A stretch of 64,000 bases of DNA from Nibricoccus sp. (GTDB taxonomy: Bacteria > Verrucomicrobiota > Verrucomicrobiia > Opitutales > Opitutaceae): the NCBI GenBank assembly GCA_047602425.1, contig JASGHG010000001.1, positions 2,336,001 through 2,400,000 of the forward strand, read 5' to 3'. Both the position numbers and the translations under genes were made by a program. Each line of letters starts with the position of its first letter. Positions within the stretch are counted from its first letter, which is position 1. Shown here piece after piece: positions 50,239-64,000 of this stretch. Under the pieces are notes generated by a model that searched no databases, was not told the DNA's origin, and was given only the letters and a program-made list of their open reading frames with translations.

Positions 50239-50242
50239 TGGA

Positions 50243-50551
50243 TGGTGGGCCCACTGGGATTCGAACCCAGAACCAAAGGATTATGCTTACCACTTCGACT
50301 TTTGCCGCCGGATTTTTATTCGGAAATCCGTGCGTGGTCTGGACCATGCCTTCGCCGTGACATTGCTGTTTTAGGCGGGTGATTATGGTCTCTACACCTT
50401 CACGTATTCGAGAAACGACTACGTGCTTGGCTCGGCGTTGGGTCGTCCTTGCGGACAGGCCGTTCACCGAATTTACACCTGACAACCGGCGCGTTTCCAC
50501 GCCGGCGACCCGAATCTGAGTCCTCTGCTCTAACCGTTGAGCTATAGGCCC
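50243..50551 (-). tRNA. tRNA-Ile2(CAT) interrupted by a group I intron
   Basis: Exon 1 50551-50519 (GGGCCTATAGCTCAACGGTTAGAGCAGAGGACT) plus exon 2 50285-50243 (CATAATCCTTTGGTTCTGGGTTCGAATCCCAGTGGGCCCACCA) give a canonical 76-nt Ile2-like tRNA. Confidence 0.9.
50286..50518 (-). ncRNA. Group I self-splicing intron, 233 nt, no ORF (IC3-like)
   Basis: 5' exon ends in U with P1 GACUC/GGGUC (U-G wobble); P AAAUUCGGUGAA, Q AACGCCGAGCCAAG, R GUGUAGAGACCA, S AAGGCAUGGUCC; terminal omega-G. Confidence 0.9.
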
Positions 50552-50702
50552 ACAAAAATCCAAAGAACGAACAGATCGTGGAGAGCGATTTGTTTCACCT
50601 CAACAGCAATTCCCAAAAATTATATGGAAGTGGAAATCCTTCGTGAAATCAGCTCGGCGATAGCCAGGGGACATTTTTCACAAAAAACTTCTCCAGTAGT
50701 CG

Positions 50703-51614
50703 TCACTTTAGCTGTAGAACTCTGCGTAGTTCTGCGACCAGATGAGCGGCACCAGGACGAATCGCGACAAGGCGCGGATTCCAAACGAGCACGATGGGAC
50801 GTTTCAACTGCTCGAGGATCTTGGACTCGATCACGACGTAGTCCACGGGCGCGAGGTCGGTCAATGCTAGCTTTGGCAAGATGGCGGCAAAGTGGCCCGA
50901 GCGAACTGCACTCAGTGCGTGAGGGAACGATTGGCAAGCGATGGTGGGAGCGAAAGCCGCGCCGCATTCCTCAGTTAGTGCACGAAGTTTTTGTGCGAAT
51001 TGGCCGTCGGTTGTTTGGGCGACGAGCGGGACTTTGGCTAGAACCTCTTCCAGCGTGAGCTGTTGAACTCGTGATACGAGTTTGCGGGGAACGACAGCCA
51101 CAAATGGAACATCTCCCAATGGTGCCGACTTGAGGCCTTCGCCAACCGCGTCGCGGCGGATCAGGCCGAAGTCGATGCGGCCATCGTTCAGTTGCTGGAC
51201 GATTTCGTTCGTGCGGTGATTGTAGGTAGAGAATCGCATCGGCGTTTTTCCGTGTGAAACTTGGCCGAGCCGTGGGAGCACTAACCATTGAAGCAGGTTG
51301 TCGCCGGCTGCTATACTGTACTCGACGCAGCCCGCATGGCATTCCGAGCGGAAATCCTGTAGCGATCGTAGTTGGTTGCGGGCGAGTTCTGCCAGGCGTG
51401 CGCCTTGAACGGTGAGTTTGAGGATTTTTCCCTGCCGCTTAGTGACTTCGACGCCAAAGAATTCAGAGAGCTCGCGCAATTGACGGCTATATTGGCTCTG
51501 GCGAATGGGATCGCCAGGAGCTGCTTGGGCAATGCTGCCTGCGTCCTGAACTTCAACCAAGACCTTGAGTCGGTCGAGGGATAGACCGCGTTCTGCGAAG
51601 AGAGTGTCAAACAT
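50703..51614 (-). CDS. LysR-family transcriptional regulator
   Basis: LDRLKVLVEVQDAGSIAQAA...QSQYSRQLRELSEFFG HTH, LT.QG, DGRIDFGL. Confidence 0.88.
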   Translation of the reverse strand: MFDTLFAERGLSLDRLKVLVEVQDAGSIAQAAPGDPIRQSQYSRQLRELSEFFGVEVTKRQGKILKLTVQGARLAELARNQLRSLQDFRSECHAGCVEYSIAAGDNLLQWLVLPRLGQVSHGKTPMRFSTYNHRTNEIVQQLNDGRIDFGLIRRDAVGEGLKSAPLGDVPFVAVVPRKLVSRVQQLTLEEVLAKVPLVAQTTDGQFAQKLRALTEECGAAFAPTIACQSFPHALSAVRSGHFAAILPKLALTDLAPVDYVVIESKILEQLKRPIVLVWNPRLVAIRPGAAHLVAELRRVLQLK

Positions 51615-51647
51615 GACTACTAAGTCAGGTATCCTGAGTAATCATGT
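51611..51647. promoter_or_regulatory. Palindrome over the LysR start codon (candidate operator)
   Basis: ACATGACTACT ... AGTAATCATGT (10/11 match) with inner TCAGG-TAT-CCTGA. Confidence 0.45.
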
Positions 51648-51797
51648 ATGGCAAGACTTCTCACGATCGGGTAAAGTCTGCCCCGTCAACTGAGCCGGGA
51701 TTTAAAAATCACGAGAAATATTTTAAACACCTCTTGATTTTTGAAACCCCGGATCCGTTGTAACTCTTCGAACACTCATTCGTCTCAACCTTCTGCC

Positions 51798-51953
51798 ATG
51801 AATTCCACACGACAAATAAAATCAACGACCCTCCGGTTAGCGGAGAGGCATTGGTCGTGCGGCAAACAGACTGCCAAGATGACCATGCGTCGAGGTTTGG
51901 AAAGTTTCCGACCCGACTATGCGAATATTAACCAAGGAAGTGGTGTAACCTGA
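51798..51953 (+). CDS. Putative 51-aa leader peptide (uORF) of the tRNA array
   Basis: ATG...TGA ending 25 nt before a terminator; its last codons contain the antiterminator strand GGAAGTGG. Confidence 0.55.
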   Translation: MNSTRQIKSTTLRLAERHWSCGKQTAKMTMRRGLESFRPDYANINQGSGVT

Positions 51954-51978
51954 GCAACGACTTTACGTAGACTCAAGG

Positions 51979-52007
51979 AACCCACTTCCCTCAGAAGTGG
52001 GTTTTTT
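51979..52007 (+). terminator. Intrinsic terminator (attenuator) upstream of the tRNA array
   Basis: AACCCACTTC-CCTCA-GAAGTGGGTT followed by TTTT. Confidence 0.8.
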
Positions 52008-52336
52008 CATGCCTGAAAAGCCGCTTCTGGGATCCGAGCAAGACTCGTTTTTCCAAGTTTCAAGCGGCTTCACTGCTGAGCCCAGGTCAATCAGCCAACG
52101 TCCGCACAAAATCCCGCGGCCGTCCAAACCACTCGCAAAGTGATAGGGCCGGAGGTGTGTGTTCTTTTTTGCGAATGCAGGAGCCGAAACAAGCTCCTGC
52201 ACTAATATATCAAGATGCGGTGCGCTTAGATGGCGTTAAACGGCGATGCCGGCCGCATTTTCAATTTTCCCGCGCACGAGCTAAAGACCGACAGTGTTGT
52301 TATATTTGTTGTGAGGTCACAGCTCCGGCGCGAAAA

Positions 52337-52413
52337 CGCCTTGTCGTCTAACAGCATAGGATCCCGGAATTTCAAACCGAGGGATGGGGGTGCGAATCCC
52401 GTCGAGGCGACCA
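52337..52413 (+). tRNA. tRNA-Glu(TTC), weak anticodon stem
   Basis: CGCCTTG/CGAGGCG acceptor, loop ATTTCAA, T-loop TGCGAAT, CCA. Confidence 0.65.
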
Positions 52414-52521
52414 TTTTGTTCGAACAAGCGCCGGTTCTTAGTCCGAGACCGGAGTGCGCAGTCCCCATCGGATTTCCCGCGAGCCAGTCGGCGGCCAATG
52501 CCGGCAGGGGAATATTTCCAT

Positions 52522-52595
52522 GCGTGTGTGGCGTAACAGCAACGTGCCGGTCTGCCAGTCCGGAGTTCCGAGTGCGATCCTCGGCATGCGCACCA
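52522..52595 (+). tRNA. tRNA-Gly(GCC), A73
   Basis: GCGTGTG/CATGCGC acceptor, loop CTGCCAG, CCA. Confidence 0.8.
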
Positions 52596-52602
52596 TTTTC
52601 AT

Positions 52603-52693
52603 GCGCCGGTCCCCATAGCAGCGATTGGTCCAGACTTTTAATCTGGAGAGCCGCAACGCTCCAACGGGGGTGCAAGTCCCTCTCGGCGCACCA
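52603..52693 (+). tRNA. tRNA-Lys(TTT) with a long variable arm
   Basis: CCAGA-CTTTTAA-TCTGG; variable hairpin GAGC-CGCAAC-GCTC; CCA. Confidence 0.75.
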
Positions 52694-52713
52694 ATTTAAT
52701 AGATACAATTTAC

Positions 52714-52791
52714 GCACGTCGAGGGAGCCAGTGAACCCGGCTGCCTGCAAAGCAGTGTTTCAGCACGGTGCGACACCGTGGACGTGCTCCA
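52714..52791 (+). tRNA. tRNA-Cys(GCA)
   Basis: GCACGTC/GACGTGC acceptor, loop CTGCAAA, U73, CCA. Confidence 0.8.
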
Positions 52792-52799
52792 TTTCATTT

Positions 52800-52874
52800 G
52801 GGGATATGGCCGAGTTAGTAAGGCATCCGCCCTGCAAGCGGACCATGAGGGTGCGAATCCCTCTGTCTCCACCA
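52800..52874 (+). tRNA. tRNA-Ala(TGC)
   Basis: G3-U70 pair, TCCGC-CCTGCAA-GCGGA, CCA. Confidence 0.85.
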
Positions 52875-52912
52875 ATCTTTCCCCCGGTTTTGCGCGAGTG
52901 GGCCGGGTTCAA

Positions 52913-52987
52913 GCCTGAGAGGTGTTGATAGATACACGACCGTCTTCCAAGCGGATGTAGCCGGCGCGATACCGGCCTCGGGCACCA
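52913..52987 (+). tRNA. tRNA-Gly(TCC), A73
   Basis: GCCTGAG/CTCGGGC acceptor, loop CTTCCAA, CCA. Confidence 0.8.
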
Positions 52988-52994
52988 TTTTTAT

Positions 52995-53072
52995 AGCAGG
53001 ATGGAGGAGCGGCCGTCCTCACCAGCCTCATAAGCTGCGAGATCGCTGGTTCAAATCCAGCTCCTGCTACCA
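52995..53072 (+). tRNA. tRNA-Met(CAT), initiator-like
   Basis: A11-U24 pair, loop CTCATAA; the only array member with canonical D-loop GG and T-loop TTCAAAT. Confidence 0.8.
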
Positions 53073-53078
53073 TTTCAT

Positions 53079-53153
53079 ACGGACGTGGCAGACAAGCAAT
53101 GCAGCGGTCTCCAAAACCGCCTTATGGGGGAGCGATACCCTCCGTCCGTGCCA
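53079..53153 (+). tRNA. tRNA-Trp(CCA)
   Basis: GCGGT-CTCCAAA-ACCGC, G73, CCA. Confidence 0.85.
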
Positions 53154-53250
53154 ATTTGCAATATGAAGAGTAACACTTCGCCGAGGGCGAAGGACGAGTA
53201 AAAGTCTCGTTGAAGCAATGTGCGGCTCCGCGTTCAGCGGGGCTGTATCT

Positions 53251-53326
53251 GGAGGTTAGGCCGATCTAGTGATGGCACGTGGTTGAAGCCCACGAGAGCG
53301 CGGCGCAAAACCGCGAGCCTCCACCA
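53251..53326 (+). tRNA. tRNA-Phe(GAA)
   Basis: CGTGG-TTGAAGC-CCACG, CCA. Confidence 0.8.
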
Positions 53327-53334
53327 ATTTTCAT

Positions 53335-53410
53335 CGGGGTGTAGCGTAGCAGCCAACGCGCTCGGCTTGGGACCGAAAGATCGCAGGTGCAACTCCTGTC
53401 ATCCCGACCA
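53335..53410 (+). tRNA. tRNA-Pro(TGG)
   Basis: C1-G72, A73, loop CTTGGGA, CCA. Confidence 0.85.
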
Positions 53411-53463
53411 GTTTTCCAGGTGTGTGGCCCAGTCAGCGGGGCACCGGCCCGTGACGCCGGGGA

Positions 53464-53526
53464 CGGAGCGAAGCGGAGATGGGGCCGCCGATAAGCGGAG
53501 GGCGTCATCCCCGAGCGTAGCGAGCC
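53464..53526 (-). mobile_element. Palindromic mini-element, reverse copy in the His tRNA variable loop
   Basis: CGGAGCGAAGCGGAGATGG...GAGCGTAGCGAGCC is the reverse complement of the family consensus. Confidence 0.65.
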
Positions 53527-53540
53527 AAATGGGTGCAATT

Positions 53541-53619
53541 GACTCGTATTCGACAAGCGGATACTCGGGCCTTCGGCCCGCACCTGCGGTGCGCCGTTCC
53601 GCGTAGGAACCACGCTCCA
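53541..53619 (+). mobile_element. Palindromic mini-element in the His tRNA T-loop
   Basis: GACTCG-hp-CTC-hp-hp-GCCGTTCCGC-hp-GCTCCA after TGCAATT. Confidence 0.7.
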
Positions 53620-53639
53620 CCCACCCACCTGACCATTTC

Positions 53640-53716
53640 GCTCGTGGAGGCGAAGTAGTCGAGGCAACCCTCTGTCTGAGGGGAGTAAGCCGGTGCGAGT
53701 CCGGTCGCGAGCGCCA
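53640..53716 (+). tRNA. tRNA-Asp(GTC)
   Basis: GCTCGTG/CGCGAGC acceptor, loop CTGTCTG, G73, CCA. Confidence 0.75.
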
Positions 53717-53723
53717 ATTCTAT

Positions 53724-53800
53724 CGAGGCGTAGCCAAGCAGCTAAGGCAGCTGGCCTACACCCAGCCATTCCGGGGGTGCAAGTCCCTCCGCCTCGACCA
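53724..53800 (+). tRNA. tRNA-Val(TAC)
   Basis: GCTGG-CCTACAC-CCAGC, CCA. Confidence 0.85.
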
Positions 53801-53806
53801 TTTGAT

Positions 53807-53881
53807 TCTGGAGTAGTTCAGCAGCAGAACGCCTGGCTGTTAACCAGGATGTCGCAGGGGCAGAACCTGCCTCCAGAGCCA
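53807..53881 (+). tRNA. tRNA-Asn(GTT)
   Basis: U1-A72, CCTGG-CTGTTAA-CCAGG, G73, CCA. Confidence 0.88.
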
Positions 53882-53885
53882 TTTT

Positions 53886-53961
53886 CGTCGGCGAGACGGC
53901 CAGTGAAGTCACCTGCCCGACATGCAGGCAACGCTCGGTGCGACACCGAGGCCGACGACCA
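53886..53961 (+). tRNA. tRNA-Val(GAC)
   Basis: CCTGC-CCGACAT-GCAGG, CCA. Confidence 0.82.
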
Positions 53962-54055
53962 TTTCCTTAGTTGTGTCGGAGGATTGGGCACAGCGAGGAG
54001 ATCAACTGGCCCGGCCACAGGCCGGAGACGAGTGCCTCCGCTCCGCCAGCACCAT

Positions 54056-54130
54056 CCGGACGTAGTGTAGCAGCAACATACTCGCCTCGGACGCGAGTGA
54101 CCGAGGGTGCAAATCCCTCCGTCCGGACCA
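54056..54130 (+). tRNA. tRNA-Pro(CGG), A37
   Basis: C1-G72, CTCGC-CTCGGAC-GCGAG, CCA. Confidence 0.85.
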
Positions 54131-54136
54131 ATTTTT

Positions 54137-54211
54137 TGCGGTGTCGTCTAACACGCAGGACAGCGGACTTTGAATCCGTTTGTGGAGGTGCGAATCCTCC
54201 CGCCGCAGCCA
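54137..54211 (+). tRNA. tRNA-Gln(TTG)
   Basis: U1-A72, GCGGA-CTTTGAA-TCCGT, G73, CCA. Confidence 0.88.
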
Positions 54212-54215
54212 GCCT

Positions 54216-54355
54216 TGGTCACAAGCTTTAATAGTTAAGCCGCCGGCTCTTAACCGGCAGAACTCGGAGCATTTGACTCGCGCATACGCGCTCGGGGCCT
54301 TGCCCCTAACCTGCTGGTTAGCCGCTCCGCGTTGCTCCGCCGAGGCGGCCCACCA
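54216..54355 (+). pseudogene. tRNA-Lys(CTT) interrupted in the T-loop
   Basis: GCCGG-CTCTTAA-CCGGC; T-stem CTCGG/CCGAG split by a 65-nt element; two acceptor mismatches. Confidence 0.7.
54275..54339 (+). mobile_element. Palindromic mini-element in the Lys(CTT) T-loop
   Basis: GACTCG-hp-CTC-hp-hp-GCCGCTCCGC-GTT-GCTCCG after AGCATTT. Confidence 0.7.
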
Positions 54356-54356
54356 T

Positions 54357-54433
54357 GGCTCGATGGCGCAGCATGTAGCGCAGCTCCCTCATAACGAGAA
54401 GGTCGCGGGGTGCGAATCCCGCTCGAGCCCCCA
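54357..54433 (+). tRNA. tRNA-Met/Ile(CAT), degenerate
   Basis: GGCTCGA/TCGAGCC acceptor, loop CTCATAA, imperfect anticodon stem, C73. Confidence 0.65.
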
Positions 54434-54440
54434 TTTTCAA

Positions 54441-54528
54441 CGGGACGTGGCAGAGCAGCAAATGCAACGCACTGTAAATGCGTCGGCTTTACAGCCTATC
54501 ACTGGTGCAAGTCCAGTCGGCCCGACCA
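54441..54528 (+). tRNA. tRNA-Tyr(GTA), C1-G72
   Basis: ACGCA-CTGTAAA-TGCGT, long variable arm, CCA. Confidence 0.85.
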
Positions 54529-54643
54529 CTTTCTCGGTCTCATGGGTGCCAACAACTCATGCTTTTGTCGGTTAAGGTTAAAACCGGCCAGCAGTTCTGG
54601 TGGATCAGAGCAATCGTTAGGTTTTTGCGTAAAAAACCAGTTT

Positions 54644-54719
54644 GCCTCTTAAGCATAGTTAGCGATGCAACTTCTTGGTAAGGAGTAGATGGTCGGCGCA
54701 CATCCGACAGGAGGCTCCA
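54644..54719 (+). tRNA. tRNA-Thr(GGT)
   Basis: GCCTCTT/AGGAGGC acceptor, loop TTGGTAA, CCA. Confidence 0.8.
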
Positions 54720-54726
54720 ATTTCAT

Positions 54727-54884
54727 GCGAGCGTGGCGGAATAGCATACGCGCCGGCCCGAGATGCCGGTGAGCGCAAGCTCATGAGGGTGCGATTGACT
54801 CGTATTCGACGAGCGAATACTCGGGCCTGCGGCCCATGCCTGACGGCATGCCGTTCCGCTTCGCTTCACCCTTCGTTCGCACCA
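54727..54884 (+). pseudogene. tRNA-Leu(GAG) interrupted in the T-loop
   Basis: CCGGC-CCGAGAT-GCCGG, long variable arm; T-stem GAGGG/CCCTT split by a 72-nt element; otherwise intact, CCA. Confidence 0.75.
54797..54868 (+). mobile_element. Palindromic mini-element in the Leu(GAG) T-loop
   Basis: GACTCG-hp-CTC-hp-hp-GCCGTTCCGC-TTC-GCTTCA after TGCGATT. Confidence 0.72.
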
Positions 54885-54890
54885 ATTTAT

Positions 54891-54980
54891 CGCGGCGTGG
54901 TTGGAATTAGTATACACAGCGGTCTCAAAATCCGCTGGGCTTCAACGCCCGTGCCGGTGCGAGTCCGGTCGCCGCGACCA
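54891..54980 (+). tRNA. tRNA-Leu(CAA)
   Basis: Loop CTCAAAA, long variable arm, CCA. Confidence 0.82.
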
Positions 54981-54981
54981 T

Positions 54982-55069
54982 GCGGCTGTGTGTGGAAAAG
55001 TAGACCAGGCGGTTTTAAAAACCGCTGCGCCTCTGGCGCGTGGGCGTGCAAGTCGCCCCAGCCGCACCA
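54982..55069 (+). tRNA. tRNA-Leu(TAA)
   Basis: GCGGT-TTTAAAA-ACCGC, long variable arm, CCA. Confidence 0.8.
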
Positions 55070-55078
55070 ATTTGATAT

Positions 55079-55165
55079 CGGCAAGTGATGGAACAAGCAT
55101 ACACGCGAGTCTCAGAAACTCGAGGGCGCGAGCCTGTGCAGGTGCAAATCCTGTCTTGCCGACCA
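55079..55165 (+). tRNA. tRNA-Leu(CAG), A37
   Basis: CGAGT-CTCAGAA-ACTCG, long variable arm, CCA. Confidence 0.85.
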
Positions 55166-55174
55166 TTTTACTAT

Positions 55175-55251
55175 CGCCCTGTCCTCTAACGAGCACAGGA
55201 GACCCGTTTCTCAAATGGGCAATGTGGGTGCAAGTCCCATCGGGGCGACCA
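55175..55251 (+). tRNA. tRNA-Glu(CTC)
   Basis: CCCGT-TTCTCAA-ATGGG, CCA. Confidence 0.82.
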
Positions 55252-55255
55252 TTGA

Positions 55256-55347
55256 CGCCGCGTAGTTCAAAGTGAACCGTCCGCCTTATAAACGGAATCG
55301 CGCTAGATGAGCGCCAGGCCCGGGAGCGTTACCCGGCGCGGCGACCA
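55256..55347 (+). tRNA. tRNA-Ile(TAT) with a long variable arm
   Basis: TCCGC-CTTATAA-ACGGA; variable hairpin GCGCT-AGATG-AGCGC; CCA. Confidence 0.72.
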
Positions 55348-55425
55348 ATTTGGGGCAGTGAGAACAGGGGTACTTCGTTCGAAACACGTCAAACAACACC
55401 TTGTTCATGTTTCTCCTCAATATAT

Positions 55426-55500
55426 GCCTCTTATGCGTAGTTAGCGACGCGCGGCGCTTGTACCGCTGAAAGGCCGGCGCAAATCCGGCAGGAGGCTCCA
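55426..55500 (+). tRNA. tRNA-Thr(TGT)
   Basis: CGGCG-CTTGTAC-CGCTG, CCA. Confidence 0.8.
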
Positions 55501-55504
55501 ATTT

Positions 55505-55579
55505 CTCCCTGTAGTGAAATAGCTATCACACGGCTCTGCGAAGGCCGAGATCCAGGTGCAAGTCCCGGCAGGGGGACCA
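55505..55579 (+). tRNA. tRNA-Arg(GCG)
   Basis: CGGCT-CTGCGAA-GGCCG, CCA. Confidence 0.8.
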
Positions 55580-55587
55580 TTTTTCAG

Positions 55588-55662
55588 CTCTGCGTGGTGA
55601 AATTATTATCATGTCGTGCTTCGAACGCGTCGTTGTGGCTGGGATTCCCGCCGCAGAGTCCA
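55588..55662 (+). tRNA. tRNA-Arg(TCG), degenerate T-arm
   Basis: CTCTGCG/CGCAGAG acceptor, loop CTTCGAA, CCA. Confidence 0.65.
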
Positions 55663-55704
55663 ATCTCGTTGTATCTATGCCGTGGTTTATTGCGGCGATA
55701 TTTT

Positions 55705-55777
55705 CTCCGCGTGGCCGAGAAGCTCAGGCCTCCGCCTTCTAAGCGGATCGACGCAGGTGCAAATCCTGTCGCGGAGA
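55705..55777 (+). tRNA. tRNA-Arg(TCT), CCA not encoded
   Basis: TCCGC-CTTCTAA-GCGGA, CTCCGCG/CGCGGAG acceptor. Confidence 0.8.
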
Positions 55778-55783
55778 CTTTAC

Positions 55784-55874
55784 GGAGGCGAAATCGGACA
55801 AGCGTGCCGACAACCGTTTGAAGCGGTCAGGGCGACTGCGTGTCGCTGGGGAGCATGACCTCTCGCCTCCGCCA
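55784..55874 (+). tRNA. tRNA-Ser(TGA)
   Basis: GGAGGCG/CGCCTCC acceptor, G73, long variable arm, loop TTTGAAG. Confidence 0.72.
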
Positions 55875-55880
55875 ATCTTT

Positions 55881-55966
55881 GGAGAGTAAAGCCGTGAAGC
55901 GCGGCGACCGGTTGGAAGCCGGCTCGGACCTCCGGGTCTGTGGGGCGGAACCACTGCTCTCCGCCA
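55881..55966 (+). tRNA. tRNA-Ser(GGA)
   Basis: GGAGAGT/GCTCTCC acceptor, G73, loop TTGGAAG, long variable arm. Confidence 0.75.
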
Positions 55967-55974
55967 AATTTGAT

Positions 55975-56200
55975 GGAGAGTGAATCCGCCGAGGTGCGGA
56001 CACTGTTTCGACGAAGCGAAGCGGAGATGGATCGACCGAAGGTCGACCCGCAGGGTGAGCGTAGCGAATCAAAGCAGATGGATTGCCGGCACAAAGACTC
56101 CGCTTTGTTCGTCGTGTTGCCCGCGTTGCGGGCGCCCACGCGACTACCCCTCGCTTCGCTCAGGGCTGCGCCATCTTCGTGCTGCGCACTCCGTCCGCCA
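55975..56200 (+). pseudogene. tRNA-Ser(CGA) disrupted by several palindromic insertions
   Basis: GGAGAGT 5' end, ACTGT-TTCGA, insert, AAAGCAG; ends TCCGCCA; a second degenerate element at about 56148-56193. Confidence 0.6.
56012..56070 (-). mobile_element. Palindromic mini-element, reverse copy in the Ser(CGA) anticodon loop
   Basis: CGAAGCGAAGCGGAGATGG-hp-hp-GAGCGTAGCGAATC followed by AA. Confidence 0.68.
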
Positions 56201-56204
56201 TCTT

Positions 56205-56278
56205 CCTCGTGTAGCTCAAAAGCAGAGCAATCGGCTGATAACCGATCGACGTCGGAGCGTTACCGAATGCGAGGACCA
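56205..56278 (+). tRNA. tRNA-Ile(GAT)
   Basis: ATCGG-CTGATAA-CCGAT, CCA. Confidence 0.85.
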
Positions 56279-56285
56279 TTTTTTC

Positions 56286-56373
56286 GGAGGGTTAATCCCG
56301 AGAGTCGGAAGCCGCGGTGCTAACGCGTGCGGCGGTGAAAGCCGCTGAGGGGCAGGACCTCAACCCTCCGCCA
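56286..56373 (+). tRNA. tRNA-Ser(GCT)
   Basis: GGAGGGT/ACCCTCC acceptor, G73, loop GTGCTAA, long variable arm. Confidence 0.75.
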
Positions 56374-56394
56374 TTTTTCATCGCGTGTGCGATT

Positions 56395-56474
56395 GACTCG
56401 TTTTCGCTAAAGCGAAACTCGGGGCCTTGCCCCGCACCTGCTGGTGCGCCGCTCCGCGCTCGATGAGCGTTGCG
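56395..56474 (+). mobile_element. Palindromic mini-element in an isolated T-arm remnant
   Basis: GCGTG-TGCGATT-[GACTCG...GCCGCTCCGC...GTTGCG]-CATGC; the 5' part of the host tRNA is missing. Confidence 0.65.
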
Positions 56475-56496
56475 CATGCCCGGCAGCATTTTTCAC

Positions 56497-56571
56497 TCTC
56501 TGCAAGCATAGGCAGCGATGCAGCGGTTTCGTAAACCGCAGAGGCCGGCGCACACCCGGCGCGGAGATCCA
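56497..56571 (+). tRNA. tRNA-Thr(CGT)
   Basis: GCGGT-TTCGTAA-ACCGC, TCTCTGC/GCGGAGA acceptor, CCA. Confidence 0.82.
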
Positions 56572-56691
56572 GTTTTTCAGTCAGACGGTTTTTGGACTGA
56601 GGAGTTAAACGCAAAAAAGAACACACACCCACGTTGGCTGAGCTGAGCCCAGCGGAGCTGTGCCATTTTTTAATTTATCCATTTCGTTCCC

Positions 56692-57327
56692 ATGAACACT
56701 AGCATTCTCGATAAACCCATCGTCCTGTCGCTTAACCGCGCCTGGCAGGTGATCGGCCACCGTACCGTGAAGCAGGCTCTCGTAGCTCTTAACGGTGGTT
56801 CGGCTGGTCTACCGCCTGCGCTCGGTCTCGACATTGCCTATCCGAAGCTCGACGACGGTGGTTGGAATTTCGACCGCCCGCTTTTCCTCAATCCACTTCC
56901 GTGGGTTGATTGGATCAATCTGCCGGTTCGTGAATTCGACTTCGTCGTTGCGACGCCGCGGATGCAAATCCGCGTGCCAACCGTTATCATCTCGACGCAA
57001 TATGATCGCATGCCGATTCGGCTTCCGCGGGTCACGCGCCAGGCGATTTTTGAGCGCGATGGTGGTATCTGCCAATACACCGGCGAGTACGTCGGCAAAG
57101 GCGGCGGTAATCTCGATCACGTTGTGCCCCGCGACCGCGGTGGCCGCGACAGCTTCGAGAACCTCGTCTGGGCAAAAAAGGAGATCAACTCGATGAAGGC
57201 TAACCGTCTTCCCCACGAGGCCGGTCTCCGACTGCTCCGCCGTCCGAAAACGCCCGCGCCGTTGCCCGCCGCCGCGGCCATCCGCGAGCCCAAACATCCT
57301 GACTGGCGCCACTTCCTCGCACACTGA
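56692..57327 (+). CDS. HNH endonuclease
   Basis: VLSLNRAWQ, TRQAIFERDGGICQYTG, LDHVVPRDRGG...ENLV...NSMKAN. Confidence 0.9.
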   Translation: MNTSILDKPIVLSLNRAWQVIGHRTVKQALVALNGGSAGLPPALGLDIAYPKLDDGGWNFDRPLFLNPLPWVDWINLPVREFDFVVATPRMQIRVPTVIISTQYDRMPIRLPRVTRQAIFERDGGICQYTGEYVGKGGGNLDHVVPRDRGGRDSFENLVWAKKEINSMKANRLPHEAGLRLLRRPKTPAPLPAAAAIREPKHPDWRHFLAH

Positions 57328-57396
57328 AACCCTGCGGTGGGGGAGTGGCCCAAGCCGACTCAACGACTTATCGCCTTTTCCGCAGGGCTAACTTCC

Positions 57397-58104
57397 ATGA
57401 ACACCGAATCAACATCTTCCATCGGGATCTCCGATGTCCTCGACATCGTAGATACTGCCCTGGCGACGATCTCCCGTCGTTTGCCGGTCCATGTTGGTCG
57501 TGAAGACTTGGCCACTGTTGGCAAGCTCGCGCTCATATCTGCGCTGGGCCAGTGCAGTGGTTCGGTCAGCGAGGTTCGCGCTTACTGCTTCGTGCGTGTG
57601 CGCGGTGCAATTCTGGACGAACTGCGCCGCCTCGATCCGCTTTCGCGCCGCCGCCGTGAACAAGTGACGGCGGTTGTTCGCGCCCAGGCAGAACTGAGCG
57701 CGCGCTTCAGCCGTGCAGCCACGCGGGCTGAAATCGCGGTGGCGACAAAACTGTCCATTGCCGAGGTCGCGGCCGTGCAGCACATGCTCGCTCAGGAATC
57801 GGAGTTTTCAGAAACGGAATTGGACATGTTGCCGGACACGGTAGCGCCAACGCCGGCTGAAACTTCTGAAACCGAGGACCTGCGTTTAAATCTGCGTGGC
57901 GCACTTCAACGGCTGTCAGGCAACCAGGCAGCGGTTCTGTACCGCTATTACTTCGATGAAGTGACGCTCGATGTAATCGCGGCCGAGATGGGCCTCTCGA
58001 AAGAGCGTGTCCGTCAGATCCGCGACGCCGGTGAGAAAAAACTCCGTGCTGACTTCATCGTCCTGTCGATCTGGCAGTCACTCTTTAATCACAGCCGGGA
58101 TTAG
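57397..58104 (+). CDS. Sigma-70 factor, FliA/WhiG-like
   Basis: RLPVHVGREDL...G.LALI, RVRGAILDELRRLDPLSR, TLDVIAAEMGLSKERVRQI. Confidence 0.85.
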   Translation: MNTESTSSIGISDVLDIVDTALATISRRLPVHVGREDLATVGKLALISALGQCSGSVSEVRAYCFVRVRGAILDELRRLDPLSRRRREQVTAVVRAQAELSARFSRAATRAEIAVATKLSIAEVAAVQHMLAQESEFSETELDMLPDTVAPTPAETSETEDLRLNLRGALQRLSGNQAAVLYRYYFDEVTLDVIAAEMGLSKERVRQIRDAGEKKLRADFIVLSIWQSLFNHSRD

Positions 58105-58124
58105 TCATCCCGGCTGCTTTGCTC

Positions 58125-58793
58125 ATGCGCTTTTTGGACAAACACACCATTCGGGACAAGCTGTTGCTTAGCCTTGAACGCGAGCGCAACCGGCTTAGGC
58201 AGGCGCAGCGAGATGCTCCGATTGTTCCGCTGGAACATCCTTACCAGCGTGGCTGGGTGAAGACGTTTCAACTTCGTGAGGATGTTTCACGTCGTCCGGA
58301 CGTTGCCATTTTCCGAACAATCTTGGCTGCCGTGAACCGGAAAGTTTTTTCCCGCAATCGAGAATTTCTAAATCCACGGGGAGAGGAAATCCTGCTGCGA
58401 CCGAAGAAACTCAGAATCGACCAGTGGAGAAAGCTGGCTTGGCCAGCCAGTCATCAGCGCTTCTTTGCTTTCGGGCATTGGCGAGCGGACGAAGAGGCAT
58501 GGATGCCTTTGCGGCTCCGCCGGCTGCTGCCCGGCTACAAGCTGGTGCATAACTGGTGGTTAGTAGAAGATACACAGCCGCATTTGATCACTCACCAGCG
58601 CGTGGAGCTTCCGGCAGTCCGCAAGCGCCTTGCAGAAATTGAGGCATACCTGAGCCATCGGCAGGGACACGAGCGACTCAACAAGCTTCATGGCCGGAGT
58701 GATTGGTGGCGCAGATTTGTGGAATCGCGTGCCGAAATTCGGACAAATTGCTTTATCGAAGAGCAGCTCGCCGCGAAATCCATACATGACTGA
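58125..58793 (+). CDS. Basic, Trp/Arg-rich hypothetical protein
   Basis: 222-aa ORF, co-oriented within the operon; VPLEHPYQRGWVKTFQLREDV. Confidence 0.65.
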   Translation: MRFLDKHTIRDKLLLSLERERNRLRQAQRDAPIVPLEHPYQRGWVKTFQLREDVSRRPDVAIFRTILAAVNRKVFSRNREFLNPRGEEILLRPKKLRIDQWRKLAWPASHQRFFAFGHWRADEEAWMPLRLRRLLPGYKLVHNWWLVEDTQPHLITHQRVELPAVRKRLAEIEAYLSHRQGHERLNKLHGRSDWWRRFVESRAEIRTNCFIEEQLAAKSIHD

Positions 58794-58887
58794 GCAGTCA
58801 TGTATTATTCCGACAACACGCTGTTTCGCGGCAAGGTCCTCTGGTATATTTTTCCAATCAAAACTAAGAAAAAGAAACAAAATACAT

Positions 58888-59376
58888 ATGAAAACGATCA
58901 CCCTTTCACACGCCCTGAAACACAAAAACCGTCTGGCCGGCGACGTCGCACGGCTGCGCGAAATCGTGCAACGCGAAAACTCACGCAAGGAATCGCAGCC
59001 GGCTCGCGCCGACGTGCGGGTTGCCTTCGACGATAGCGTCGCCCGTTCCCGCGAACTGGCTGCTTTCAAAGGTGCAATCGCCTCCGCAAATGCAGGCGTG
59101 CTTTCCGAGGATCGTGGTATCTATGCCAAGTTGAATCTTCAGGCCGAGCTGCGTGGCCTGATCGTCTTTATCAAGGGGCTCAACACCAAGGAGGGTGAAG
59201 AGGTTGAGCGCGTCGGCTTCATGAGTCGCGACGATGCCATCCGCACGGTCTACGTTGCAACGATTACCCGCGAGGAAGTTGATCGTCTGGTTGTCGCCTA
59301 TCAGAATGAAATCGAACGTTTGCAGGATGAAATCGACGAGTTCAACGCAACAACGCGCATTCCTTTGACCAACTAG
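58888..59376 (+). CDS. DIP1984-like coiled-coil protein
   Basis: ITLSHALKHKNRL...LK.AI..AN...EIERLQDEIDEFN pattern. Confidence 0.6.
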   Translation: MKTITLSHALKHKNRLAGDVARLREIVQRENSRKESQPARADVRVAFDDSVARSRELAAFKGAIASANAGVLSEDRGIYAKLNLQAELRGLIVFIKGLNTKEGEEVERVGFMSRDDAIRTVYVATITREEVDRLVVAYQNEIERLQDEIDEFNATTRIPLTN

Positions 59377-59381
59377 TCCTT

Positions 59382-59583
59382 TCGGGCCCGGCTTGAACAC
59401 GTACGACTGACTACAGGCATTCTGGCATCCAACGATGCCATTGCGGTCTGATAAACCGTAACAACGATATCGACCTGATTGTTAACAGTCATCGTTCAAC
59501 CTCTCAAAATACAAAAATTACCGCTAAAGGTTAAAACTTTTGCCACCTGCTTCAATTGTACGCGTTTCAGGCCGGTGTCCCGA
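59382..59583 (+). ncRNA. Putative ~200-nt structured RNA
   Basis: Long closing stem: TCGGG/CCCGA, CCGGCTTGAA/TTCAGGCCGG, CGTACGA/TTGTACG, TGA/TCA, with G-U pairs on the + strand. Confidence 0.55.
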
Positions 59584-59599
59584 TCAAATTGTAAGAGCC

Positions 59600-61146
59600 A
59601 TGAATATGGAAATCAAAGCCCGTGATCTCGTTGCTGCCGGTTGGCATGAAGGCCGCCGCCTGGGCGCTGCTCTCCGCCGCGCACGTGATCTCGAATCCAC
59701 TGGAATTTCTCGCGCCGAAGTGCTCGTTCAACTCGAACAAGAATTTCCAAAGCAACTCGCCGTGATTCTTCCGCGCTATGAGCCGGCTCCGCTGGCCGAA
59801 GCGATCGAAGCTACCACACCGGAAGAAGCGACCAACGTTACCTCGGCCCGTCAGCGCATGCTCGAACTTCTCCACGTCCCGGTGGTGAAGCGCGGAAGCA
59901 TCATGCCGGACGCCTGCCCGTCGGGTGGTGGTCGTGCCACGATTCCGGTTGGGGGAGCCATCGAAGTCGAGAATGCCATCATTCCCGGCGCTCACTCGGC
60001 TGATATCTGCTGCTCGATGTACGCATCCTTTTTCCCGGCCAACCATCCGGTGGGCGAAATGATGGATCATCTTCAGAAGACCACGCACTTCGGTGCGGGT
60101 GGTCGTGCACGCGGTCAGCAATGGACCACGTCGGTGGTGGAAGAGCCGGTTTGGGATAACCCTTTCCTTTCCGGACTGCGTAGCCGGGCCAGGATTTCAT
60201 GGGAACCCAAGGCGACGGAAATCATTTCGCCTATGTCGGACGTATCCAGTTTACGGATGCGCAACGCGCTGCGCTTGAATCCGCCGGCTATACCGAACTC
60301 ACCGAATGGATCGTGCGCCGCGACGGTGAATTCAACGTCCTCGTGACTCACCACGGTTCGCGTGGTCTCGGTGCTGATGTGTACAAACGCGGCCAGAAAG
60401 CTGCCCGCAAATGGTGTGACGAAAACGCCAAAGATATTCCCGACGCAGCTGTCTGGTTGCCGTACGATTCTCCGGATGGCTCCGCTTACTGGGACGCGTT
60501 GCAGTACGTATCTCGCTGGACGCGTGAAAACCACGCCCAGATCCATGCCGCCTTCCTGCGTCGCTTGGGTCAGCGTGGCCTCGTGCAAATCGGCAACGAG
60601 CACAACTTTGTTTGGAAACGCGGAGATTCTTTCTTCCACGGAAAGGGTGCTACGCCGGCGTGGAAAGACGCGCAGGGCCGTCCGCTGCTCGGAATTATTC
60701 CGCTTAACATGGCCCGTGAAATCCTCCTCGTACTTGGTTCGGACAACAACAACTACCTGTCGTTCTGTCCGCACGGCGCTGGTCGCAACCTGTCGCGCTC
60801 GGCCATGCTGCGTCCTTACAAAGACGTGGACGGTGAAATCGATCCGGCACTCGTGCAGAAGACCCTGGCCGAAACCACGGCCGGGCTTGATATCCGTTGG
60901 TTCAATGGCGCACCGGATTTGTCCGAGTCTCCGCTCGGCTACAAAAACGCTACGCAGGTGAAGGCGCAGATCGACCGCTTTGGTTTGGCCACGGTGGTTG
61001 GCGAAATCCAACCGCGCGGTTGCATAATGGCCGGCGAAGCTCCGGAACCGCCATGGGCTCGTGCTCGCCGCGAAAAACGCGCTGCCCACAAAGCCATGCG
61101 CCGCGAAGGTGAAGCTGAGGCGGCTGAAAGTGCGCGAACTTTGTGA
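59600..61146 (+). pseudogene. rtcB: RtcB family RNA ligase, frameshifted near 60189
   Basis: MPDAC, IPVGG, SADICCSM in one frame; GTQGDGNHF, HHGSRGLG, HNF, HGKGAT, HGAGR, ESPLGYK in another; one added C restores ...RAQDFMGTQG. Confidence 0.88.
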
Positions 61147-61251
61147 AGATTTTATTGGGTGGGACAGGTAATGACCCACCTGATGGTTTATAATCATATT
61201 TTTGATCGGCTGCCGTCATTAGGCGGCAATCTCAATCTCTACGTACATTTT

Positions 61252-61996
61252 ATGAGACTTTACGTCGTCAGCGACCTGCACCAGGAGTTTGCGGCATTCA
61301 CGCCGCCGAAGGTTGATTGCGACGTCGTGATTCTTGCTGGTGATATCAATTTGAAGCGGCACGGCTCTACATTGGGCGAAGGCAACATTTCCCGATCAAC
61401 CCGTCCTCTATGTTTTCGGCAACCATGAATTTTACGGGGAGAAATACCCCCGACTTATCGAAAAGGGTCGTGACCTCGTGAAGGGATCGAATGTGCGGAT
61501 CTTGGAAAACGAGATATGTGAGATCGACGGATGGAGTTTTTTCGGTGCCACCCTTTGGTCCGACTATTCTTTGTTGGGCGACCCATTCGATTCAATCGAA
61601 GCCTCCCAGCGAGTCATGACGGACTTCAAAAAGATTCGTCATTGGCCCACGCTAAAGCGGTTTCAGCCGCAGCACGTGCGGCAGGCTCATGTGAATTCCA
61701 AAAATGCACTGCGCAATTTTCTGGAGGCTGGTGACCGCGACCGGTCGGTCGTGATCACCCACCATGCTCCCTCGGCGCGGTCATTGCCGGACAAACTAAA
61801 GGCAGATCCTGTGAGTGGGGCTTATGCCTCAAATATGGATGCCTTCATCGAAGAGATGGGCCCGAAGTTATGGATTCACGGGCACATTCACACCCCGTCT
61901 TCGTACGTGATTGGTTCAACTCTGATCACGGCCAACCCACGTGGATATCCGGGTGAAACCGGCTTTGATCCTGGGTTGGTAATTGAAGTGCCATAA
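61252..61996 (+). pseudogene. Calcineurin-like metallophosphoesterase, frameshifted near 61366
   Basis: SDLH and LAGDI in one frame; GNHEFY, GATLW, THHAPS, WIHGHIH, NPRGY in the next. Confidence 0.85.
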
Positions 61997-62010
61997 ACGT
62001 TACCTTTGGT

Positions 62011-62193
62011 ATGAAAGAGACTATAGAACTTTCGGAACGCCTCGTCAAAGACGCACATGCCGTCGGCCAGATATCCGGCCGTTCAGTGGAGGATCAGATC
62101 GAATTCTGGATAGTTTTGGGGCGGGCGACAGAGAAGGCTCTGGGATCGGATCGCGCATTGACGCTCATCAAACGCATGGGAGAACTGGAATAA
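62011..62193 (+). CDS. ParD-like antitoxin (short)
   Basis: LSERLVKDA...GRSVEDQIEFW..LGR pattern. Confidence 0.65.
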   Translation: MKETIELSERLVKDAHAVGQISGRSVEDQIEFWIVLGRATEKALGSDRALTLIKRMGELE

Positions 62194-62272
62194 CCTGGTC
62201 ACAGGCCAATGCGGAAAAGCCATTGCAACTAAGCACTAGGTGGCAGGAAGGTTGAAAACCGAACAATATAAT

Positions 62273-62641
62273 ATGGATAAATCAGAAAAACAGTCCACTC
62301 CGCGGAAATCGGCCCCGCAGCCCACGGATGACGTATTGTCCGGGCTGCCCGGCATTGTAGCCGCAACCGCCTCTCTCCATCGCGCGGACGGTTGCCTTGA
62401 TGCTGCCAGGATCCAGGAACTTTTCGGCCTGCGCGCTCTTCCTGCTGATCACGAATTACCGTGGTTGGAACGGATTGCCCGTCTCCTTGTTTTTAATCCC
62501 GACCCCGACAATTTCAGGAAATGGTTGCGGCTGCCAAATTCTGAGCTGAGTGAAAATACACCAATCGGATTAATTGAATGCGGTCGGGCTGAGTTGATTG
62601 CCAACTTCGTTGAGGATATCCTGACCAACCGTGGCGGATGA
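62273..62641 (+). CDS. Xre/MbcA/ParS-type antitoxin (toxin-binding domain)
   Basis: FRKWLRLPNSELSENTPIGLIECGRAELI. Confidence 0.7.
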   Translation: MDKSEKQSTPRKSAPQPTDDVLSGLPGIVAATASLHRADGCLDAARIQELFGLRALPADHELPWLERIARLLVFNPDPDNFRKWLRLPNSELSENTPIGLIECGRAELIANFVEDILTNRGG

Positions 62642-63712: not shown

Positions 63713-63746
63713 AGGCGTGAGGTTGGTCTAGTATGCCTCATATAGA

Positions 63747-63998: not shown

Positions 63999-64000
63999 AT

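Follow-up and report, generated by a model that had tools for sequence, protein, structure and literature searches.

A tRNA array cassette with a candidate attenuator leader and RNA repair genes in Nibricoccus and other Opitutia

Background

Arrays of tRNA genes termed L-arrays have been defined in PMC8421152, which counts Verrucomicrobia among the carrier phyla and reports a conserved HNH gene as a neighbour and rtcB in array neighbourhoods. According to the same source, the array of Anabaena is induced by translation inhibitors and 23 of its 26 tRNAs are aminoacylated in vivo; a sponge role is floated there for L-array tRNAs, and newly acquired L-arrays are argued to be likely disadvantageous and poorly expressed. 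The subject of this report is a block of tRNA and protein genes in the Nibricoccus sp. genome (GenBank assembly GCA_047602425.1), within a stretch of 64,000 nucleotides (contig JASGHG010000001.1, positions 2,336,001 to 2,400,000 of the forward strand) that is called the window and whose coordinates are used below unless genome coordinates are stated. The block is probably one copy of a patchily distributed Opitutia L-array cassette that comprises a spare set of tRNAs, gated by an attenuator, together with functions in RNA repair. By analogy with Anabaena (PMC8421152), a role as a system induced by translation stress that defends against tRNA-cutting toxins is plausible. The array qualifies as an L-array by its 33 intact and four interrupted co-oriented units in 4.2 kb, which are supernumerary, patchily distributed and linked to an HNH gene. 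As a general kind, an L-array accompanied by HNH and rtcB has been published before, because PMC8421152 reports the HNH and rtcB neighbours and the induction by inhibitors; the distinctive features here are a leader switch that covers all amino acids, a helix that brackets the array and a rewired tRNA elbow.

The trn operon of PCC 7120 (PMC8421152; for its TrcR regulon, PMC10272220) is like the cassette in its long, co-oriented and supernumerary array, its patchy spread, the nearby HNH and rtcB genes and its proposed role in translational stress. The two differ in control, which in PCC 7120 is exerted by a repressor that binds direct repeats and in the cassette would be exerted by a candidate leader-peptide attenuator and a LysR-type regulator, and in the position of the HNH gene, which is upstream of the PCC 7120 array and downstream of the array described here. 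Furthermore, the cassette has RtcB, a sigma factor, Rsr with Y-RNA-like sequences, an unnamed protein and a structured RNA in the same putative operon as its array, and the array is bracketed by a long-range helix. Its tRNAs have G55 and no GG in the D-loop, whereas those of Nostoc and Mycobacterium arrays next to homologous HNH genes have TTC T-loops in nearly all cases (two Nostoc genes have TGC). The rsr-yrlBA-rtcBA locus of Salmonella (PMC4201824, PMC7790460) brings together Rsr, tRNA-like Y RNAs and RtcB in one operon, as do, with Y RNAs that are putative, the second copy of the cassette in this genome (copy B) and 10 of 14 related loci; unlike the Salmonella locus, the cassette has no RtcA and no RtcR/sigma-54 control but has a full tRNA array embedded in it, its copy in the window is without Rsr and Y RNA, and its matches to Y RNA are below the Rfam gathering score. 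Control by a short upstream open reading frame (uORF) that decides between terminator and antiterminator is known from whiB7/wblC of Actinobacteria (PMC10274678) and from trpL and hisL. The whiB7 uORF attenuator is reported to sense general translation stress, its switch being activated by many translation stresses and by shortages of many amino acids (PMC10274678); among published sensors, its logic is the closest to the one proposed here. The leader of the cassette differs from trpL and hisL in its variety of amino acids (all 20) rather than enrichment in one, and its switch would gate tRNA and RNA repair genes, not a transcription factor as in whiB7 or a biosynthetic operon. Finally, the Tunturiibacter jumbo phage Tunturi_5 (PP885688.1) has a homologous HNH gene, dozens of tRNAs (32) and a tRNA-splicing ligase within about 20 kb, but its T-loops are canonical, and a LysR gene, the leader, the sigma factor and a homologue of the unnamed protein were not seen there.

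Results and Discussion

A conserved cassette present in two copies

The genome is complete (5.16 Mb), and comparison by blastn showed that the cassette occurs in it twice: copy A in the window (50561..61128, plus strand) and copy B 36 kb away (genome 2423120-2435715), where the full unit from LysR to RtcB recurs in co-linear blocks of 86-97% identity. The left edge of copy A is sharp at 50561, and homology with copy B fades past approximately 61128. Upstream of copy A are LacI, TonB-receptor and MFS genes, and upstream of copy B are genes of DUF6998 and a GT9 glycosyltransferase. The GC content of the cassette (0.57) equals that of the genome. A preliminary description of the window, made from its letters, had recognized one co-oriented block with a divergent LysR gene, no intrinsic terminator past 52007 and no integrase or phage gene, and this anatomy stands: everything from 51799 to 61146 is on the plus strand, with the LysR gene divergent; terminator-like sites of the plus strand beyond 52007 are scarce and weak in a consensus scan (which found 18 sites on both strands of 50000-64000, versus 17.1 expected from shuffles); no tyrosine integrase is encoded within about 440 kb of the cassette; and no phage structural or replication genes are found in the flanks of either copy. 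The LysR, HNH and sigma factor genes named there were confirmed by Pfam matches, as was rtcB, albeit split by a deletion of one nucleotide, whereas the match of the DIP1984-like protein is weak. What the preliminary description missed is the second and fuller copy, next to which the copy in the window is the decaying one; and the phosphoesterase that it counted as a member lies beyond the shared unit, which ends at about 61128, and has a match to Metallophos (E 0.0012) below the cut-off.

Related loci were collected by an alignment-based scan with one genome per species and analysed by tblastn and ARAGORN, which yielded 14 Opitutia loci from several genera. They share the order LysR (minus strand), array, HNH, sigma factor, unnamed protein (unk223), RtcB, and their arrays start with Glu-Gly-Lys-Cys and continue in the same tRNA order. 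Chance is excluded as an explanation because of this synteny in 14 other loci, and the lack of conservation that would have spoken against the preliminary description was not what was found. Presence among the 14 loci is 10 for LysR, 10 for Rsr within the array, 13 for HNH, 13 for the sigma factor, 14 for unk223, five for the DIP1984-like protein and 13 for RtcB; a LysR match is missing in L005, L015, L016 and L017, three of them near a contig end, and L015 is also without array and HNH. Identity to copy B is 71-87% for Rsr, HNH, the DIP1984-like protein and RtcB, 56-72% for LysR, and 47-60% for the sigma factor and the unnamed protein; per gene, HNH is 68-84% identical in 13 loci and the DIP1984-like protein 74-84% in 5 of 14. 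The 108 relatives of unk223 have few source labels (Opitutus terrae, Opitutaceae bacterium and Verrucomicrobia bacteria). On the evidence of sequence comparison, the cassette is a conserved unit of soil and freshwater Verrucomicrobia. Its distribution is patchy: the marker protein is present in 1 of 41 relatives, being missing from 40 that include four of the same genus, and, in a sample of 401 genomes of the class, in 9. Literature searches combining Opitut* with Rsr, Y RNA, RtcB and tRNA array found no paper that describes the cassette.

A leader peptide and a candidate attenuator

Nine leaders were aligned over approximately 700 nt and contain long invariant blocks. A promoter-like motif at 51733..51764 on the plus strand (a CTTGA box, 17 nt and a 10-nt box) consists of invariant columns of this alignment, and the full motif is found in the 5.16-Mb genome only at the two leaders. 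Downstream of it is an open reading frame (ORF) of 51 codons (51799..51953, plus strand) with a conserved ATG at 51799 and a stop codon at 51951-51953, which encodes all 20 amino acids. The ORF is 50-55 codons long and open in all nine aligned loci and four more (13 loci), and all eight distinct indels within it are multiples of three, versus 5 of 15 in the upstream flank and 3 of 25 in the downstream flank. The encoded peptides are just 24-55% identical between lineages, and yet all 20 kinds of amino acid are present in 8 of the 13 loci, 19 kinds in two and 18 in three, versus all 20 in 1.1% of random 51-residue windows of the proteome, which have 16.4 kinds on average. With their last eight residues removed, the leaders still have 18-20 kinds (the probability of at least 19 being about 3%). 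There is no run of codons for one amino acid; the 18-20 kinds include many that occur a single time.

The putative switch (51936..52007, plus strand) consists of region 1 (51936-51943), region 2 (51981-51989), region 3 (51994-52001) and a tract of six T (52002-52007). Region 1 is inside the last codons of the leader ORF and ends 8 nt ahead of the stop codon. Regions 1, 2 and 3 are invariant in the nine aligned loci, and so are the terminator hairpin and T tract at 51981-52007. The predicted folds of the antiterminator (region 1 with region 2, -23.0 kcal/mol) and the terminator (region 2 with region 3, -23.1 kcal/mol) are iso-energetic, and the minimum free energy fold of the whole leader is the antiterminator. 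In L015, matching substitutions are found in all three regions, a three-way compensatory change. Thus a conserved short ORF precedes a terminator, and the competing antiterminator pairing, which excludes it, could be masked by a terminating ribosome. The attenuator that had been proposed in the preliminary description is well supported by the invariant switch, the frame-preserved ORF, the two folds and the compensation in L015; literature searches for leader peptides or attenuation with tRNA arrays found no description of an attenuator before a tRNA array. L015 (7813-12161), from an Opitutaceae metagenome-assembled genome, has the leader directly before genes of the sigma factor, the unnamed protein and RtcB, without array and without HNH. 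Because the leader precedes these genes where there is no array, it would also serve protein genes.

Content of the tRNA array

The tRNA array (52337..56571, plus strand) was delimited by ARAGORN, Rfam and a cloverleaf scan devised for this analysis, and comprises 33 intact units, four interrupted units and one or two remnants, in the same order as orthologous arrays. With default settings, ARAGORN found 16 tRNAs (52522-55778, all on the plus strand), and Rfam found 19 tRNA matches plus two matches of the tRNA-Sec model (52337-56275); relaxed ARAGORN settings made many overlapping spurious calls and served as a cross-check only. The cloverleaf scan, for which a unit had to have a CCA end, 6 or more of the 7 acceptor pairs, 4 or more of the 5 T-stem pairs and an anticodon arm, found 30 units, to which Glu-UUC (52337), Met-CAU (54357) and Arg-UCU (55705) are added to make 33. 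Three Ser units, Gly-UCC and Asp-GUC are without ARAGORN or Rfam calls in copy A and are assigned from the cloverleaf scan, orthologues or copy B. The anticodons of the intact units are UUC and CUC for Glu, GCC and UCC for Gly, UUU for Lys, GCA for Cys, UGC for Ala, CAU for Met (two genes), CCA for Trp, GAA for Phe, UGG and CGG for Pro, GUC (probable) for Asp, UAC and GAC for Val, GUU for Asn, UUG for Gln, GUA for Tyr, GGU, UGU and CGU for Thr, CAA, UAA and CAG for Leu, UAU and GAU for Ile, GCG, UCG and UCU for Arg, and UGA, GGA and GCU for Ser. The interrupted units, all on the plus strand, are tRNA-His (GUG, 53417-53635), Leu-GAG (54727-54884), Ser-CGA (approximately 55973-56200) and Gln-CUG (56379-56490), of which His, Ser-CGA and Gln-CUG are intact in copy B, and the doubtful remnants are at 53962-54054 and 54212-54355 (plus strand). 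The earlier count of about 37 tRNA genes is right, because 33 units are intact, four are interrupted and one or two are remnants; the claim that all 20 amino acids are covered holds for 19 by intact units, His being represented in the window only by an interrupted gene.

ARAGORN predicts 84 tRNAs in the whole genome, namely 46 dispersed tRNAs, 16 in the window and 22 in the second array (genome 2425174-2431080). The array is therefore supernumerary to the 46 dispersed housekeeping tRNAs and adds isodecoders, with the exceptions of Ile-UAU and Arg-GCG. The tRNA-Ile(UAU) at 55256-55347 spans 92 nt and has a long extra arm; the tRNA-Arg(GCG) is at 55505-55579; both anticodons are missing among the 46 dispersed tRNAs. 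Two sequences without a recognizable cloverleaf, 53962-54054 (93 nt, with CCA at its end) and 52414-52521 (108 nt), are kept in copy B.

An atypical tRNA elbow

Whereas U55 is found in all 46 housekeeping tRNAs and the D-loop GG in 44 of them, G55 is found in 34 of the 38 array tRNAs called by ARAGORN in copies A and B, and none of those 34 has the D-loop GG; that is, 34 of 38 depart from the canonical elbow of U55 with G18-G19. The two U55 tRNAs of copies A and B are the Met-CAU copies, which keep GG. In the 14 related loci, 173 of 182 ARAGORN-called array tRNAs have G55, and the D-loop GG is missing in 157 of the 173. The usual form of the D-loop motif is AGC (128 of 207 G55 tRNAs). An atypical architecture of the tRNAs, noticed in the preliminary description, is thereby established. 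The G55 trait is confined to a lineage: on Nostoc and Mycobacterium plasmids, the arrays that neighbour homologous HNH genes have TTC T-loops nearly throughout (TGC in 2 of 21 genes of the Nostoc plasmid array), and so do 30 of the 32 tRNAs of the jumbo phage Tunturi_5 in the canonical form, whereas the distant verrucomicrobial array L026 has TGC T-loops in 14 of 22 and has the trait in common. A literature search found no paper on a G55 class of tRNAs in arrays. The stems of orthologous array tRNAs are maintained via compensatory changes, the array tRNA-Ala retains G3:U70, and the CCA end is encoded in array tRNAs.

Several array tRNAs contain insertions. The tRNA-His has inserts in its variable region and T-loop (53464..53619, plus strand) in copy A only, where contigs of relatives have 13 nt, and the tRNA-Leu(GAG) of both copies has a T-loop insert of 74 nt with three hairpins (54795..54868, plus strand) that is missing from 8 of 8 orthologous Leu(GAG) genes and from the contigs of relatives. 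The T-loop inserts among these belong to a family, about 70 nt long with three hairpins, that occupies one T-loop position in four different array tRNAs (53538-53612, 54274-54339, 54795-54868 and 56389-56466). The inserts of Leu-GAG and of a Lys-CUU-like remnant are in both copies of the cassette and those of His and Gln-CUG in copy A only; the copies of the insert differ via compensatory changes in their hairpins, and close copies were found neither elsewhere in the genome outside the two arrays nor in the 14 loci. A second insert type occupies the variable region of His and that of Ser-CGA, with a short match in L007. Metatranscriptome contigs of relatives skip the inserts (from 53463 to 53620, from 54794 to 54869 and from 54273 to 54340). 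Splicing was considered and rejected; the contig gaps are read as insert-free relatives because the eight orthologous Leu(GAG) genes have no insert in DNA. The stretch 56673-59600 is covered by none of the contigs, which carries no information on expression.

A helix bracketing the array

Sequences on either side of the array are complementary over a long range. The 5' strand (52088..52173, plus strand) contains segments Y (52091-52101) and Z (52154-52173), and the 3' strand (56610..56641, plus strand), which is directly past the last tRNA and about 50 nt ahead of HNH, contains Z' (56610-56629) and Y' (56631-56641). Complementarity is found in all nine loci that have both ends, with compensatory substitutions or paired insertions in L006, L009, L014 and L018 and a longer helix in L007. 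By analogy with rRNA operons, the helix may be a processing stem that releases the array from the flanking mRNA; the strands may instead be terminal inverted repeats of a DNA element, which would co-vary alike.

Protein genes and a structured RNA

The LysR-type regulator (50703..51614, minus strand) matches Pfam HTH_1 (E 2.5e-8) and LysR_substrate (E 1.8e-20), and a palindrome is located at 51615-51626. The HNH endonuclease of 211 residues (56692..57327, plus strand) matches Pfam HNH_4 (E 2.3e-7) and has an invariant D-H...N...N motif; its predicted model has a low confidence (predicted local distance difference test, pLDDT, of 58, with the N-terminal part below about 55). Homologues of this endonuclease are found next to tRNA arrays on plasmids of Nostoc and Mycobacterium and in the genome of a jumbo phage. 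In L007 (Geminisphaera colitermitum TAV2), the HNH gene (8578-9207) has an internal stop codon. The sigma-70-family factor (57337..58104, plus strand) has Pfam regions r2, r3 and r4 and is nearest to FliA/WhiG, outside which it remains as a subfamily, the copy B protein scoring 120.4 bits against TIGR02479 with a cut-off of 189.6.

The unnamed array-associated protein unk223 (58119..58793, plus strand, with a likely start at ATG 58125) has no Pfam domain in any of its 108 relatives, and searches of Pfam, PHROGs and PDB sequences were without a match. Its AlphaFold model (pLDDT 84.9) has no Foldseek match at E <= 0.001, and the best VIA-wide structural match (Z 8.0) is of helices only. Identification as Portal_Mu (ESM Atlas, 0.94) was dropped, there being 130-145 shared features and no Pfam support, and identification as an anti-sigma factor was rejected since distant homologues are beside HNH and RtcB without a sigma factor. 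Those homologues, in five further loci (27-39% identity), have tRNA arrays near in four of the five cases; another, of 32% identity, is among ten tRNAs on one viral contig out of 2.9 million scanned.

The DIP1984-like protein of 162 residues (58888..59376, plus strand) has a weak match to NCBIfam NF038048 that falls short of the family (E 3.8e-4 and 20.6 bits for the copy B protein, with a cut-off of 70), and a search for a solved relative found none. Between its gene and rtcB, a conserved structured RNA (59385..59579, plus strand) was delineated from a seven-locus alignment, in which its 46 pairs are paired in 98% of cells versus 25-44% in slid controls, and seven pairs are changed on both sides versus 2.9 +/- 1.2 in shuffles (1 of 500). 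A noncoding RNA had already been named ahead of rtcB in the preliminary description; the element has no Rfam match, and GOLLD and other known large RNAs had no Rfam hits at E <= 1. The rtcB gene (59600..61146, plus strand) has a 1-nt deletion at about 60189, with Pfam RtcB matches on both pieces. No match to RtcA or RtcR was found with Pfam or NCBIfam among the ORFs of the cassette, the regulator of which is of the LysR type.

Decay of copy A and genes around the cassette

Copy B has an extra stretch of 2.3 kb, missing in copy A, between tRNA-Thr(UGU) and tRNA-Arg(GCG). It encodes a TROVE/Ro60 protein (Rsr) of 497 residues (Pfam E 3.2e-19, phrog_850 E 1.6e-39), ahead of which are two YrlA-like matches that score 40.1 and 31.3 bits and so fall short of the gathering score, 69; five more in L006, L011 and L018, of 31-41 bits, are likewise below it, and tandem tRNAs can mimic YrlA according to PMC4201824. 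In the window, no Rfam hit to Y RNA was found, and TROVE has no match among ORFs of at least 100 residues from 56600 to 64000. The rtcB gene of copy B is one open frame (phrog_1075 E 5.8e-72) with CCC where copy A has CC at about 60189, and the array of copy B has about 38 anticodons for all 20 amino acids. Judged by these sequences, copy A is a decaying paralogue, without the Rsr module, with a frameshifted rtcB and with small insertions in five tRNA units.

The 26 kb between the copies encode an island of conflict, ADP-ribose, NAD and RNA repair genes, 20 kb of which (genome 2400001-2420000, L001) is on the minus strand. It encodes a MoxR-vWA-beta-propeller system (bpX0-4, bpMoxR), Macro, ADP-ribosylglycohydrolase, NADAR and Band-7 proteins; Tpt1/KptA RNA 2'-phosphotransferase, PARG, an NMNAT-like protein, isochorismatase and NrtR; and NAD synthase, PRPP synthetase and NAPRTase. 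Together, the two cassettes and the island make a region of about 50 kb concerned with RNA repair, ADP-ribose and NAD metabolism.

Downstream of copy A, an ORF of 172 codons (61478-61996) with the weak Metallophos match, outside the conserved unit, forms a pair with an ORF of 89 codons (61159-61996 for the pair). The pair is near the cassette in 2 of 20 other loci (L007 2460-3203 and L029 19130-19888), with about 49-50% identity and on different sides of the cassette. Farther downstream are an ORF (62240-62641) that weakly matches the C-terminal domain of Xre/MbcA/ParS antitoxins and a gene for a DUF3806 protein (62738-63712, minus strand). Ten nucleotides outside the left edge, on the minus strand at 50510-50551, is a stretch of about 40 nt that resembles a canonical tRNA over its 5' half only (acceptor, GG-containing D-arm and first part of the anticodon arm); no 3' half comes after it. 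Insertion of the cassette at a tRNA gene was considered and rejected, because the genome contains no partner for this half and no integrase is encoded nearby.

A proposed mechanism and its alternatives

The anatomy suggests how a spare tRNA set could be switched. Transcription would start at the dedicated promoter next to the divergent LysR gene. The first 155 nt of the transcript would contain the leader peptide of about 51 codons, with nearly every amino acid, the end of which overlaps region 1, and folding and covariation predict that pairing of regions 1 and 2 competes with the terminator formed by regions 2 and 3. A ribosome that proceeds smoothly to the stop codon would cover region 1, and the terminator would form and leave the operon off, whereas stalled or unloaded ribosomes would permit pairing of regions 1 and 2, and RNA polymerase would read on. 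Stalling could be caused by a shortage of any charged tRNA, by cleavage of tRNAs or by an antibiotic block. Read-through would transcribe the array, the complementary flanks of which could let a double-strand RNase excise it, and would presumably continue into the genes of HNH, the sigma factor and the unnamed protein, the structured RNA and RtcB, to which the full version of the cassette adds Ro60/Rsr and Y-RNA-like sequences. As an account of this locus, the preliminary description was sound in its anatomy, conservation, attenuator and odd tRNAs, and erred in overlooking that there are two copies and in including the phosphoesterase.

Several observations weigh against an attenuator-gated spare tRNA set. 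Covariation support for the switch comes mainly from one locus (L015), because regions 1-3 are invariant in most loci. There is no Shine-Dalgarno sequence ahead of the leader ATG, and the leader is about as variable at codon position 1 as at positions 2 and 3 (32, 38 and 37 of 49 columns). The only Val codon of copies A and B is codon 50, in the stretch that the ribosome would already cover, and therefore not every amino acid can be sensed. The array tRNA-His is without the G-1:C73 pair of its housekeeping counterpart, and G55 with loss of the D-loop GG might impair function in translation. The frameshift of rtcB could be real or could stem from misassembly at a short run of C. Similar RNA was found only in two metatranscriptomes (6-9% word share), with contigs of relatives that are 90-95% alike and cannot show induction.

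A different explanation of the same locus is a cryptic, selfish L-array, spread horizontally by HNH as a homing endonuclease, silenced by the terminator, slowly decaying in this genome and of no benefit to the host. It would fit the patchy distribution (in 1 of 41 relatives and, within the class, in 9 of 401 genomes), the association of HNH homologues with arrays on plasmids and in phages, the matches of RtcB, Rsr and HNH to phage families, the duplication of the cassette within one genome with differing flanks, and the lesions of copy A (the rtcB frameshift, loss of Rsr and tRNA insertions) and of the HNH gene of L007 with its internal stop; new L-arrays are, moreover, considered likely to be disadvantageous and poorly expressed (PMC8421152). 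It is nonetheless unlikely, given that HNH, RtcB and Rsr are 70-87% identical across genera, that the tRNA stems and the helix stay paired via compensatory changes, that an elaborate leader switch is kept with its frame preserved in 13 loci, and that the cassette has the GC content of the genome (0.57) and no integrase near. Another alternative is derivation from a decayed prophage, of which a module of phage tRNAs, RtcB and Ro would be left over. Despite the joint presence of HNH, 32 tRNAs and RtcB in Tunturi_5, the viral contig on which a homologue of the unnamed protein is among ten tRNAs, and the matches of cassette proteins to PHROG families, such an origin is very improbable: in neither copy do the flanks encode phage structure, phage replication or an integrase, 14 bacterial loci share the 10.6-kb unit and its edges, led by a LysR gene of host type, and the viral contig is a single match, of 32% identity, among 2.9 million scanned.

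The array RNAs might also be something other than decoders, either decoys or sponges that soak up tRNA nucleases or substrates of Rsr, RtcB and HNH, an explanation that carries little probability; just as little attaches to its corollary that the altered elbow keeps the array RNAs from the ribosome and the modification machinery. Such ideas would fit the elbow, which has G55 and no GG in 34 of 38 tRNAs of the two copies, while 173 of 182 tRNAs of related loci have G55, versus none of 46 housekeeping tRNAs; they would also fit the missing G-1:C73 of the array tRNA-His, the putative tRNA-like Y RNAs and Rsr inside the array, and the sponge role floated in PMC8421152. Decoding is favoured, however, by the near-complete set of anticodons (about 38 in copy B, for all 20 amino acids), by the encoded CCA end and the Ala G3:U70 that is kept, by the aminoacylation in vivo of 23 of 26 Anabaena array tRNAs (PMC8421152), and by the leader, since a peptide of all amino acids would be best explained by an output that restores decoding.

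Implications

A more ambitious form of the spare tRNA set, rather doubtful as a whole, is a self-contained rescue device that combines a leader sensing all 20 amino acids, a tRNA pool orthogonal at the elbow, positive feedback by the sigma factor and RNA repair. If it were so, the elbow of G55 and D-loop AGC would make the array tRNAs poor substrates for nucleases and toxins that use the canonical T-loop or elbow; one Burkholderia contact-dependent inhibition (CDI) toxin cuts between T54 and Psi55. The array would be excised at the bracketing helix, RtcB, Rsr with Y RNA, HNH and the unnamed protein would process or repair RNA, and the sigma factor would read a promoter specific to the cassette, resulting in positive feedback.

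L-arrays are widespread, and to our knowledge a single one has been functionally studied, its sensor being a repressor. In the cassette of Opitutia, translation of the leader would report directly how well nearly every amino acid can be decoded and would thereby gate spare tRNAs and repair genes; with so readable a mechanism, a simple leader reporter in a cultured carrier could put the notion of a backup tRNA pool to the test. The systematic elbow of G55 without GG, in about 90% of approximately 220 array tRNAs, amounts to a natural experiment that concerns one of the most highly conserved tertiary contacts known in biology. The unnamed protein, which keeps company with HNH, RtcB and tRNA arrays, offers a new way into the biology of arrays.

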